DNA of 64,000 bases from Escherichia phage Turkey5, in the sequence record PQ471516.1. One strand, written 5' to 3'. Every line of letters starts with the position of its first letter. The first letter of the stretch is position 1. Positions 48,728 to 52,140 of the stretch are shown here, in pieces. The translations under genes and the position numbers were made by a program. The notes beneath the pieces are model-generated. The model was not told the DNA's origin. It saw only the letters and a program-made list of their open reading frames with translations, and ran no database searches.

Positions 48728-49156
48728 ATGAATATCGAACAAGTAATCCGCTCTAACGCTTTCTTCTCTGCTGAATCTGGTCGTGTTATCGAAGATATCA
48801 AAATCGAAGAACTGATGATCAACGTTAAGTACAAAGAACAGAACGAAGAAATGTCCAGCAGCATCTGTGCTCTACGTGCTCCATTCCGTAGTGAAAAAGC
48901 TAAGAAGCCAGCATATGTTCTAGCGATTGCTCTTGGTTGTGTAGTGAAGAAAGCTATTGACTCCAACCAACTAAATATCAAAGTTGCTCCAATGAACGAT
49001 GAAGAGAACATCAACCTGGACTTCGACGGTCAACTGTCTGAAGAAGAATTCTTCCAGCTTTCTCTGATTCATGACTTCCGTAGCATCAACTTTGACCACA
49101 TTCACTTCATCGACGAAATGGTTGAATTGGTTTCTCAGTACGAAGCTGAACTGTAA
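48728..49156 (+). CDS. F-Q-x-S motif family paralog
   Basis: C-terminal EEEFFQLSLIHD block shared with 10 other ORFs; AAGGAA upstream. Confidence 0.6.
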   Translation: MNIEQVIRSNAFFSAESGRVIEDIKIEELMINVKYKEQNEEMSSSICALRAPFRSEKAKKPAYVLAIALGCVVKKAIDSNQLNIKVAPMNDEENINLDFDGQLSEEEFFQLSLIHDFRSINFDHIHFIDEMVELVSQYEAEL

Positions 49157-49170
49157 TAAGTAATAAAACA

Positions 49171-49195
49171 AGCCTCCTTGAAAGGAGGCTTTTGT
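49171..49195 (+). terminator. Rho-independent terminator
   Basis: AGCCTCC-loop-GGAGGCT hairpin then TTTGT. Confidence 0.6.
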
Positions 49196-49210
49196 CATAA
49201 GGATATGTAA

Positions 49211-49768
49211 ATGAAGTTAATAGAACAAATTCAAACCCTATCTAATCAGATTGCAGAGTTCTTGTCTGATAAAGAAGGATTTAAAGTAGAAATCACCCAT
49301 CACGGCGTAGGTATTGTCGTAACTTACCCAAGTGGTGATACAATGGATTATGATGTGTATGAGCTATTGTTATACACCCTAGCAGTACGTAAGCTCGGTA
49401 GTGATATCGAACTTAAAATCAACAAAGATGAAAATGGTAATGAAGTTTTTGCAGTAAACACTGATGCTAAACTTGACATTCCTGCTGGATTCACTAAAAT
49501 CAATGAATCATTTATTGGTTTTAAACATGATTCTATTCAGAGTGTTTTTATTGGTCGTCAGATTGCAAACACCCAATTCCCATATACTGTCATGACATTG
49601 TATAAAAATGGTAACTGGATGCGTCAGGATTTGGTAATGGCTGAAGTACTGTATGCACTAACCCATGACCTAAGCCTTGAACTCGTTGATAGTGCATTCT
49701 GCTTTAAACGTATTCGCAAACTATCTGCTGACATTCAAGCAGAACTAAAAGAACTAAATGATAAATAA
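49211..49768 (+). CDS. Hypothetical protein
   Basis: ORF; AAGGA upstream. Confidence 0.55.
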   Translation: MKLIEQIQTLSNQIAEFLSDKEGFKVEITHHGVGIVVTYPSGDTMDYDVYELLLYTLAVRKLGSDIELKINKDENGNEVFAVNTDAKLDIPAGFTKINESFIGFKHDSIQSVFIGRQIANTQFPYTVMTLYKNGNWMRQDLVMAEVLYALTHDLSLELVDSAFCFKRIRKLSADIQAELKELNDK

Positions 49769-49885
49769 ATGTACCAGAAATGGTTAACATAATCATGTTA
49801 CTTTCCTCCCTTATACAATAATGATTTGTTATTCCGCATTTTATTTTTTCATTTCTCTTTTTTCGTACAAATTCTTTTTCGTACT

Positions 49886-49910
49886 GCCCCTACTTAGGGG
49901 CATTTTTATT
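49886..49910 (+). terminator. Rho-independent terminator
   Basis: GCCCCT-ACTT-AGGGGC hairpin then ATTTTTATT. Confidence 0.6.
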
Positions 49911-49925
49911 GCCTAAAATAAAGTT

Positions 49926-49953
49926 TTGACATTTGATGATTAGGTGATATAAT
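49926..49953 (+). promoter_or_regulatory. Consensus sigma70 promoter (TTGACA-16-TATAAT) driving the paralog array
   Basis: Perfect hexamers, TG extended -10. Confidence 0.6.
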
Positions 49954-49980
49954 GTTCATATACATCTTAGAGGATACATT

Positions 49981-50409
49981 ATGATTATCGATTTGCATTC
50001 ATTTTTTAATAAATTCAACGAAGCGGATATCCCTACGTGGGACGTGAAAATCAACCACACTAATAAATCATTGTGGCTACATAAAGGTAATGAATCAATC
50101 CAGATGATGATTAATGATGATTATGATATCACCCGCTTCTACCACATGGAAGAAAACAAAACCTTCGTTAAGGTTGCTTTCGACATATCTGATGATAATC
50201 TGTTCATCAACGTTCTGTCAGAAGGTTCTCATGTCCTGGTTGATGCTAAAATCAAAGAGATTAGTACTATCAAAAGTGAGGAAGGATTGTTTCAACGTTC
50301 AGTTATTGAAGACCTGTACAATGTAGAATACTCTGATCTTGTGAAGCTGAAGACAATCGTAGATAGTCTTAAAGCAAAAGCAAAAGAACTCATCAAAGAG
50401 GTATACTAA
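49981..50409 (+). CDS. F-Q-x-S motif family paralog
   Basis: C-terminal EEGLFQRSVIED; AGAGGA upstream. Confidence 0.6.
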   Translation: MIIDLHSFFNKFNEADIPTWDVKINHTNKSLWLHKGNESIQMMINDDYDITRFYHMEENKTFVKVAFDISDDNLFINVLSEGSHVLVDAKIKEISTIKSEEGLFQRSVIEDLYNVEYSDLVKLKTIVDSLKAKAKELIKEVY

Positions 50410-50873
50410 TGAAAAGCATTATTCAAAACTGGAATCCAGACACAATCAGTACTGAAAGTAAATTGTCTTTTGCGTTCTCTATTATTAACATTGACGTTAT
50501 AGATTATCTATCTATTGATTCGATGGACGCAAAGGAATGCACACATCGTGTGTGGTATGATTATGACCAAGGTGTAGAACTGACACTTACGTATAACACA
50601 GAAGATTTGGTTCAAAGTGAACAATACAGTGTGTGCCTTGATGGTACTATTGGTATTCGAAAGCATTACTTAGATGATGGGAAAGTTATTTCCGAAACAA
50701 TCAATATCACAGATCATGGTTTTAATGAAGAATCTTTCTTCATGGAAAGTACTATGCAGAATTTTGGTACAATGACTTTTGAAGAGTATGTACATCTTAA
50801 AATTCTATATCGCAAAGTACTGGAAGTTGTTACCGAACTGGAAAAGGTGAACCAAAATGATCAACATTCATAA
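50409..50873 (+). CDS. F-Q-x-S motif family paralog
   Basis: C-terminal EESFFMESTMQN; GAGG upstream. Confidence 0.6.
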   Translation: MKSIIQNWNPDTISTESKLSFAFSIINIDVIDYLSIDSMDAKECTHRVWYDYDQGVELTLTYNTEDLVQSEQYSVCLDGTIGIRKHYLDDGKVISETINITDHGFNEESFFMESTMQNFGTMTFEEYVHLKILYRKVLEVVTELEKVNQNDQHS

Positions 50874-51234
50874 AGAATTGGCATTATTAAAAAAAGATTT
50901 CGATGAAAATACATTAACACTATCATTAAATGCTGGTGTAATTAAAGTTGGTGTTTCCACGTCATACCTTGTTTACCGTAAGAACAGTAAAGAGGTCTTA
51001 TATCATAATGAATCTGGTATAATTTGGGTGTATGATATGGAAAAGAATGTCATCAATTACGTTACTGATTTTTATGCACATAAAACAGTTAATTTTGATG
51101 TTACTGAAGAGGAACTATTCCAGCAATCTCTGATAGAAGCTGATGTACTAATGCCAGAGGAAATTAAAATAATCACAGATGCGGTGCAGTATGTATTTGA
51201 TAGTGTTCAAGAACATGAAGGTACTGAAGGATAG
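50857..51234 (+). CDS. F-Q-x-S motif family paralog
   Basis: C-terminal EEELFQQSLIEAD; AAGGTGA upstream. Confidence 0.55.
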   Translation: MINIHKELALLKKDFDENTLTLSLNAGVIKVGVSTSYLVYRKNSKEVLYHNESGIIWVYDMEKNVINYVTDFYAHKTVNFDVTEEELFQQSLIEADVLMPEEIKIITDAVQYVFDSVQEHEGTEG

Positions 51235-51237
51235 TCC

Positions 51238-51693
51238 ATGAATAAATTACAGGTTTTTGAATATCTAACACGTACATCAATGATGGATTTACCAGAAGTA
51301 ACATGTAAGAACCCAAAAGAATTAATCCGAATCTATCATATTGTTGAGGATTTACAATACAGAATCAATACTGAATATGATTATGTTACCGTGTCTGTAC
51401 AAAACTTAAACTGGAGTGGTTCAGCAGCGGAAATGTTCAACATTTCATACGATACAGCTAATGATTGTTTAAGGGTATTCATTCGAGAAAGTTCTTATTC
51501 CCATATGGATTTTACTGAAGTTCGTGAGGTTAGTAATTGCCTAACTGAAGAAGGGTTTTTCCAAGAATCATTGGTACAGAATTTAGTGTTCACTCAAGAT
51601 GAATTAAAATCTGTTATTGATATTTTGGAGTATATACAGCTAAAAGCCAGAGCGAAATACAAAATAACAGAACAGATTCCGAGAGGTATATAA
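51238..51693 (+). CDS. F-Q-x-S motif family paralog
   Basis: C-terminal EEGFFQESLVQN; AAGGA upstream. Confidence 0.6.
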   Translation: MNKLQVFEYLTRTSMMDLPEVTCKNPKELIRIYHIVEDLQYRINTEYDYVTVSVQNLNWSGSAAEMFNISYDTANDCLRVFIRESSYSHMDFTEVREVSNCLTEEGFFQESLVQNLVFTQDELKSVIDILEYIQLKARAKYKITEQIPRGI

Positions 51694-52140
51694 ATGTTTT
51701 TTAATCCAGTACCTTTTTTTAATTTGTTAAGTGTAACATCAATCCCCGATTTAAAGATTGGTGAAGATTATTCTAATAATTACATACTTGCCCTGGAAAT
51801 TGAATCGGATGATTTCAACTGCTATGTAACATACGATGCAAATGAACATTCTGTAGCTGAACTGGTATTTGTATACATATATAACGTTTATTGTGGTGAT
51901 GGTACAGGGGTTAAATCAGTTGAGGTTGAAACATTTGGCATCAAAGGTTCATTGGTATTGAATGAAAACAACGTAGAATTCAACCTAGATGATTACAGTA
52001 CTGAAGAAGCATTGTTTCAACTTAGTACTATTCAAGATTGCTGCTTAACTTTGAAAGATATAAAAGAATTCAAAGAACAGGTTGACAGTGTGTATGAGAT
52101 GTTATACAATGCTTATCCTGAATTTGAGATTAGAAGATAA
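51694..52140 (+). CDS. F-Q-x-S motif family paralog
   Basis: C-terminal EEALFQLSTIQD; GAGAGG upstream. Confidence 0.6.
   Translation: MFFNPVPFFNLLSVTSIPDLKIGEDYSNNYILALEIESDDFNCYVTYDANEHSVAELVFVYIYNVYCGDGTGVKSVEVETFGIKGSLVLNENNVEFNLDDYSTEEALFQLSTIQDCCLTLKDIKEFKEQVDSVYEMLYNAYPEFEIRR

Follow-up and report, generated by a model that had tools for sequence, protein, structure and literature searches.

The 64,000-nucleotide stretch of Escherichia phage Turkey5 (PQ471516.1) analysed here, hereafter the window, carries a family of small paralogous proteins that share a motif near the C-terminus, with the consensus [TS]-E-E-x-[FLY]-F-[QM]-x-S-[TL]-[IVL]-x-[DN]. By sequence comparison, ten open reading frames (ORFs), all on the + strand, are solid members of this family. 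Five of them form a tightly packed contiguous array, namely 49981-50409 (142 amino acids), 50409-50873 (154 amino acids, motif EESFFMESTMQN), 50857-51234 (125 amino acids), 51238-51693 (151 amino acids) and 51694-52140 (148 amino acids); the start of the second gene overlaps the stop codon of the first, and the overlaps are 1 and 17 nt at the first and second junctions, respectively. Directly before the array lie a GC hairpin with a trailing T run, resembling a terminator (49885-49902), and a perfect sigma-70 promoter (49926-49953; TTGACA, 16-nt spacer, TATAAT, 12/12 positions, with an extended -10 TG), both of which had been noted in the initial annotation and are confirmed here; the promoter ends 28 nt before the first array gene. 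A further member, 48728-49156 (142 amino acids, motif SEEEFFQLSLIHD), falls in phrog_23322, the most conserved subfamily, and has orthologues at 66-73% identity. This gene had been counted as the first of six genes arranged head to tail. Only the five genes spanning 49981-52140 proved to be contiguous, and 48728-49156 is set apart from them by the terminator-promoter pair and by a + strand gene for a protein of 185 amino acids (49211-49768) that is not a member (hhalign P 0.21, hidden Markov model [HMM] E ∼4).

The remaining four members lie downstream of the array. The ORF at 54200-54652 (150 amino acids, motif DDDFVFQQSTLT) represents the divergent subfamily phrog_21500. That at 55051-55479 (142 amino acids) had been overlooked earlier; its motif, EEMIFQHLTT, has Leu replacing the usual Ser, and its ATG start is the one used in the annotation of Escherichia phage vB_EcoM_JNE01 (hereafter JNE01). 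The product of 60219-60722 (167 amino acids) ends in a basic C-terminal tail. Finally, the start of 62659-63048 (129 amino acids) was fixed at the ATG at 62659 because a tRNA-Leu gene lies upstream (62480-62564). Shine-Dalgarno-like sites precede most members.

Several lines of evidence establish these ORFs as a real, expanded family of paralogs, as the initial annotation had proposed. The ORFs that it listed are all present at their coordinates, and the motif strings quoted for them agree with the translations. We ran the strict pattern [DE][DE]x(1,2)F[QM]xS[TLV][IVLM] on 235 window ORFs and obtained nine matches, which all fall in the 48.7–63 kb interval of the + strand, against a mean of 0.014 and a maximum of 1 in 1000 shuffles of the ORFs. 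When the six ORFs between 48728 and 52140 were made into an HMM, it recovered two ORFs outside the training set, 62659-63048 at E 6.6e-9 and 60219-60722 at E 4.7e-8; none of 2350 shuffled decoys scored better than E 0.1. In a leave-one-out analysis restricted to window paralogs, 8 of 11 ORFs were recovered at E ≤ 4e-4 (among them 48728, 7e-6; 49981, 2.8e-7; 50409, 4e-4; 50857, 7.6e-5; 51238, 6.9e-5; 51694, 1.5e-6; 60219, 2.1e-8). The ORF at 54200-54652 was not recovered by window paralogs alone and requires relatives from other phages. These are included in a multi-phage profile of 42 members, to which sequences from fEgEco12, 121Q and Klebsiella phage KP13-7 were added, and which matched 54200-54652 at E 6.1e-5 and 55051-55479 at E 4.1e-8, each measured before inclusion. 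BLASTP similarity between members is weak, yet the pairs form a connected network (49981/51238, 1.4e-6 over the full length; 50857/51238, 4e-4; 48728/51694, 0.004; 50409/62659, 0.011). The motif aligns significantly, and the ten ORFs combine a full-length profile match with the motif ∼30–45 residues from the C-terminus.

About 11 paralogs had been claimed originally. Ten of the ORFs listed then stand, if 60719-61132 (+ strand, 137 amino acids) is included as a probable, divergent member. We assign it this intermediate status because its motif is exact (EEEEFQYSLVQDE) and its hhalign alignment (P 0.0013, compared with 0.2–0.66 for unrelated neighbors) has the motif and the last helix in step with those of the family, whereas the HMM gives it an E-value of just 0.01–0.1. 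The eleventh candidate, 59783-60169, is unsupported (HMM E ∼8, hhalign P 0.05). Outside the listed set, a longer + strand ORF of 201 amino acids (45691-46296) has a C-terminal segment, AFQKTLVQDE, that aligns with the motif region of the family (hhalign P 0.004), and it may be a remote relative. An antisense ORF (48971-49198, − strand) also scores on the family profile and was rejected as an artefact and not a gene; its translation contains EEFF, as expected if the EEFF codons of the member on the other strand, read as the palindrome GAAGAATTCTTC, would give EEFF on both strands.

Conservation was assessed over 132 non-identical members drawn from the window, seven related loci and database matches. 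The conserved block reads [T46 S21 D15]-E91-[E75 D15]-x-[F37 L30 Y15]-F100-[Q82 M16]-x-S90-[T49 L46]-[I41 V39 L12]-x-[D60 N19] (percentages), with an invariant Phe, and is followed by a second, weaker block that approximates [VIL]-[TS]-[YFL]-[ED]-[DE]-[ILF]-x-x-[ILF]. An AlphaFold (AF2) model of 48728-49156 computed from 25 sequences, orthologs and paralogs together, was confident (predicted local distance difference test [pLDDT] 87.1, predicted template modelling score 0.81), while a model of 51238 computed with 10 window paralogs was poor (pLDDT 51.6) and was not taken to the fold search. The 48728 model is a single domain made of an N-terminal helix (helical segments within residues 3–16), a seven-stranded antiparallel meander sheet (strands 20–27, 30–36, 43–50, 61–68, 71–76, 81–86 and 95–100) and two C-terminal helices (105–114 and 122–141). 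The motif corresponds to the first of the C-terminal helices, and the conserved block also covers the start of the second. In the model, [TS]104-E-E looks like a helix N-cap, and F108, F109, L113 and I114 presumably form an amphipathic face packing on the sheet. The family shares one predicted fold. The N-terminal halves had been described as divergent, which they are; homology and the predicted fold nevertheless extend over the whole protein. The proteins are soluble and mostly acidic, with a length of 125–170 amino acids and no transmembrane segments, and the isoelectric point (pI) is 4.0–5.1 in nine of 11 and ∼7 in the other two.

Three readings of the motif as a short linear signal were considered and rejected. 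A TEV/3C-like protease site (E-x-x-[YF]-F-Q-x-S) was discarded, with no search for a 3C-type protease having been made, and likewise a prohead-protease site of the form [ST]-x-E, as the motif lies within a confidently predicted helix. QLSLI resembles the beta-clamp-binding motif QL[SD]LF, a likeness that was dismissed because conservation is lacking at the second position and the segment forms a helix.

The initial annotation had recognized no named family, and our database searches bear this out. The family has no named model in Pfam, NCBIfam or PADLOC (none at E ≤ 0.1 in the last), and scanning 32 members singly against Pfam gave 24 weak matches, each in one member only. We found nothing in a sequence profile search of the PDB, no match to the SUKH/Smi1-Knr4 or Imm families of Pfam, with toxin-like neighbors annotated in none of the related loci, and no consistent match to curated models of anti-phage defence or counter-defence (PADLOC-DB, Pfam anti-restriction, Acr). 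The profile therefore reached no characterized domain. PHROGs assigns every window member to a separate group without known function, with cross-matches between the groups, which number more than 10 (phrog_23322, 24941, 24510, 36084, 30841, 30548, 21500, 22160, 33143 and others). A fold search of BFVD returned only uncharacterized proteins of RaK2, CBB and GAP32. The individual proteins are thus already in the databases as hypothetical proteins of RaK2-like phages, and their unity as one superfamily is unrecognized in PHROGs.

The distribution of the family is narrow. Only 47 clusters at E ≤ 1e-3, all of 85–191 amino acids and all with the motif, emerged when 1.84 billion representative proteins were searched exhaustively with HMMER, and a word-indexed search of 5.8 billion proteins with two family-profile queries gave 4 and 6 matches. 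TBLASTN with the family consensus identified 362 places in 74 phage records. Barring chance-level matches (for example a Gordonia tail sheath, E ∼0.9), the records listed are myoviruses larger than 310 kb, or their partial records, and infect the Enterobacterales genera Escherichia, Klebsiella, Salmonella, Erwinia, Yersinia, Serratia, Pectobacterium and Cronobacter. With the array member 51238-51693 as query, TBLASTN gave orthologs in 37 jumbo phage records at ∼30% identity. Distant members were also present in three metagenomic contigs, with 10–17 profile matches per 20 kb.

Turkey5 itself is, judging from its nucleotide matches, a jumbo myovirus of E. coli of the PBECO4/121Q/RaK2-like (Asteriusvirus-type) group. 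Bases 48000–56000 of the window are 97.9% identical to JNE01 (355 kb, Asteriusvirus), compared with only ∼78–80% over part of their length for 121Q, PBECO4, fEgEco12 and others. Nearly all window genes are on the + strand, and the region from 46 to 64 kb consists of dense short ORFs annotated as hypothetical in every related record. JNE01 has 10 TBLASTN places, as many as there are members in the window, which makes it probable that the family does not extend to other parts of the genome.

Expansions of this kind are not without precedent. The RaK2 genome paper gives ∼10% of gene products as paralogs without database homologs (PMC3622015), the CBB paper lists 22 paralogous ORFs (PMC5259590), and clustered, divergent small paralogs lacking database homologs are on record for the same phage clade in these two papers and a third (PMC7824862); in the passages searched, none of the three names or describes the family, its motif or its fold. 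Lineage-specific expansion of jumbo phage paralogs is therefore a known phenomenon, and the protein family itself is undescribed.

The family genes diverge faster than the genes around them. Compared with 121Q, syntenic orthologs have a median identity of 36% for the family and 62% for neighbors (Mann-Whitney p 0.001); the five array genes are 27–43% identical, whereas the flanking ORF at 52150-52410 and the methyltransferase gene downstream of the array are 90–92% identical. Compared with JNE01, the family genes differ by 46.5 synonymous and 33.5 non-synonymous changes, giving a non-synonymous to synonymous ratio (pN/pS) of 0.18, against 0.12 in the neighbors. When fEgEco12 is compared with 121Q, the family has an omega of 0.24, twice the 0.12 of its neighbors; within the family the value is 0.27 for the N-terminal part and 0.19 for the last 45 codons. 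Over all ortholog pairs omega ranges from 0.08 to 0.47; every pair lies below 0.5, and positive selection was not found. Phages of Escherichia and Klebsiella and those from metagenomes have intact frames and preserve the synteny. By these estimates the members are functional genes subject to purifying selection that is relaxed, with a rate of evolution about double that of the genes around them, and the C-terminal helical module is their most constrained part. Copy number varies as well, with five contiguous genes here and six in 121Q, in which the sixth, gp83, occupies the position where Turkey5 has only the terminator-promoter spacer (49768-49981). The corresponding extra member in fEgEco12 is g447, and 121Q has in addition a small ORF, gp82; gp82-gp83 correspond to 13137-13681 of the 121Q locus stretch.

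The genes lie in a region rich in putative host promoters. Scanning both strands of the window for TTGACA-N16-18-TATAAT with at least 11 of 12 positions matching, we found 28 near-consensus sigma-70 sites on the + strand and none on the − strand, where 2.5 were expected per strand. Eight of the + strand sites are perfect (24497, 41447, 42660, 47630, 49926, 55949, 57785 and 58323), and 19 of the 28 fall within 40–64 kb, a concentration that suggests a long early region read by the host RNA polymerase. No T4-type late-promoter motif (TATAAATA) was found upstream of any member. The description of the array as an early-expressed accessory module fits this context, with early expression being deduced from the promoters. 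A similar arrangement is described in the CBB paper, where RpoD-like promoters cluster in a region of short hypothetical ORFs that the authors read as early host-takeover genes (PMC5259590). Because the next + strand terminator after the array is only at 54147-54169, the five array genes may be co-transcribed with two small ORFs, a C5 DNA methyltransferase gene that is not a family member (52796-53656, + strand; annotated as DNA methyltransferase in 121Q, fEgEco12 and phAPEC6) and an ORF at 53658-54137. The family flanks a C5 methyltransferase in related phages too, and two of the metagenomic contigs have PF00145 neighbors.

On the basis of context, small size, acidity and fast divergence we hypothesize a role in host interaction or anti-defence. 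We tentatively favor, with a little less than even confidence, the reading that the members act early, in the cytoplasm, by binding or inhibiting host or defence proteins, with the conserved helices as scaffold and the variable sheet as specificity surface. Host RNA polymerase would make each paralog early in infection. The [TS]EE residues would N-cap the first C-terminal helix, and the invariant Phe and the hydrophobic residues that follow it would clamp this helix onto the sheet, in which case the motif would serve as a fold scaffold or as a shared docking or oligomerization surface, leaving the variable sheet and loops to do the work of the protein. Each paralog would then bind one different host or defence protein stoichiometrically, neutralizing or redirecting its target, so that the family would amount to a repertoire of binders for host takeover or anti-defence, whose genes may be transcribed together with that of an anti-restriction C5 methyltransferase. 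Like the early proteins of T4 and T7 and the DNA mimics Ocr and Arn, the family proteins are small, acidic and non-virion, and their genes sit behind strong sigma-70 promoters beside an anti-restriction-type methyltransferase, as early takeover and anti-defence genes do; unlike those proteins, with which they have no homology and which are usually single-copy, they occur as 10–17 paralogs.

A number of considerations weigh against this proposal. No homology or experiment ties any member to a function, and the early timing derives from promoter consensus, our literature search having found no Asteriusvirus transcriptome. Linkage to the methyltransferase may reflect mere genome collinearity. The acidity is unexceptional, since 35% of the larger ORFs of the window have a pI below 5. 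With no omega above 1, an arms race is not demonstrated, and the faster divergence may be no more than weak constraint. Lastly, polar residues (E, E, Q, S, D) are conserved more strictly than pure scaffolding would explain, which hints at a shared specific site or partner. A more far-reaching proposal, which we regard as speculative and rather unlikely, is that the conserved two-helix module folds, oligomerizes or docks onto a common partner while the rapidly diversifying seven-stranded sheet recognizes different host or defence proteins, such that RaK2-like jumbo phages carry 10–17 interchangeable inhibitors or adaptors that set their host range; if true, the proteins used in anti-defence or host takeover would gain a new structural class.

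Other explanations have to be weighed against the binder reading. The fold model suggests one of them. In the p32 structure a single N-terminal helix precedes seven antiparallel strands in succession and a pair of C-terminal helices, and this order of elements, in p32/gC1qBP/Mam33, is that of the 48728 model. The members could be p32/MAM33-like oligomers, trimeric doughnuts with an acidic face. As chaperones or mimics of nucleic acid they would tie up basic proteins that bind DNA or RNA, for example those of the nucleoid or restriction and defence nucleases, and the conserved helix would be the oligomer interface. The fold scores are, however, weak and below significance, and PF02330 (MAM33) gave no match at E ≤ 1 with 10 window members or with 32 members singly; neither did the PDB profile search retrieve p32, nor a literature search for a MAM33-like phage protein anything relevant. 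MAM33 proteins are moreover eukaryotic and mitochondrial, unlike the phage family. We thus treat the likeness in the predicted topology as a lead and not as evidence of homology, and consider this explanation unlikely, if still worth pursuing. Somewhat less probable again, in our estimation, is that the paralogs are a repertoire of adaptors, in which the invariant helix motif docks all of them on one common partner, for instance a hub protein of the host (protease, RNA polymerase) or a protein of the phage, and the variable sheet recruits different substrates. The pattern of conservation argues for a specific shared contact of this kind, as F is kept in 100% and E, Q and S in 82–91% of the sequences while ordinary core positions accept I, L, V, F or Y interchangeably, and omega is lower in the C-terminal module (0.19) than in the rest (0.27); but the motif is predicted with high confidence as a helix within the fold, its pattern suits a partly buried amphipathic helix, and we found neither a candidate partner nor a linked conserved partner gene.

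The rapid divergence, variable copy number and omega at twice the value of the neighbors would also be accounted for if the genes were weakly constrained duplicates that individually do little or nothing, their lineage-specific expansion being neutral and tolerated by slack in genome size. We find this improbable, given that every ortholog pair bears the mark of purifying selection (omega 0.08–0.47), frames are intact, synteny is kept and the motif is strongly conserved over the 132 sequences. There remains the suggestion that the members are internal, inner-body or scaffold proteins packaged in the phage head, comparable to the internal proteins of T4 or the inner-body families of phiKZ, with [ST]-x-E in the motif as a prohead-protease cleavage site. 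Paralogous inner-body families are known in phiKZ, and the [ST]EE of the motif resembles the cleavage motif S/A/G-x-E. An inner body is also described for phAPEC6 (PMC7247149). Yet the phAPEC6 orthologs, gp119-gp134, are absent from the 62 virion proteins identified by mass spectrometry (Table 1, PMC7247149), which largely refutes this explanation, and sigma-70-type promoters surround the genes with no late-promoter motif upstream, while the putative cleavage site lies inside a confidently predicted helix; we consider it very improbable.

Whichever function applies, the family supplies ∼10 genes of the early region here and up to ∼17 matches per 20 kb in related metagenomic contigs, in a group of RaK2-like jumbo phages in which more than 80% of genes are without known function. 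Treating it as one superfamily, recognizable by a defined motif and with its fold modelled confidently, merges more than 10 PHROGs of unknown function and gives annotators a usable signature. It also yields a compact list of candidates for screens of host takeover and anti-defence in phages of E. coli, Klebsiella and Salmonella that are considered for therapy, and should members be target-specific inhibitors, they would provide a new scaffold for counter-defence proteins.

We made some further observations on the surrounding sequence. The C5 methyltransferase differs in length between close relatives, with 286 amino acids encoded at 52796-53656 and 629 amino acids in JNE01 (13802-15691 of its locus stretch), which explains the ∼1-kb length difference in the JNE01 match. 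One metagenomic contig encodes a homologous methyltransferase of 631 amino acids with Hint and LAGLIDADG domains between two DNA_methylase halves. By analogy, the JNE01 enzyme probably holds an intein with a homing endonuclease that is not in Turkey5.

Toward the end of the window lies the start of the phage tRNA cluster, with genes on the + strand for tRNA-Leu (taa, 62480-62564), tRNA-Gly (tcc, 63530-63605) and tRNA-Ser (tga, 63696-63785); tRNA genes are intermingled with family members here, in 121Q and in KP13-7. Between the probable member at 60719 and the member at 62659 there is a second tandem family (61119-62368, + strand) of seven consecutive ORFs of ∼53–63 amino acids, which start with M-[ST]-[HY]-x-E-W and have a Tyr-rich middle in common, with a mutual identity of only 16–22%. 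Similar runs of 165-bp ORFs appear in the annotations of 121Q and JNE01.

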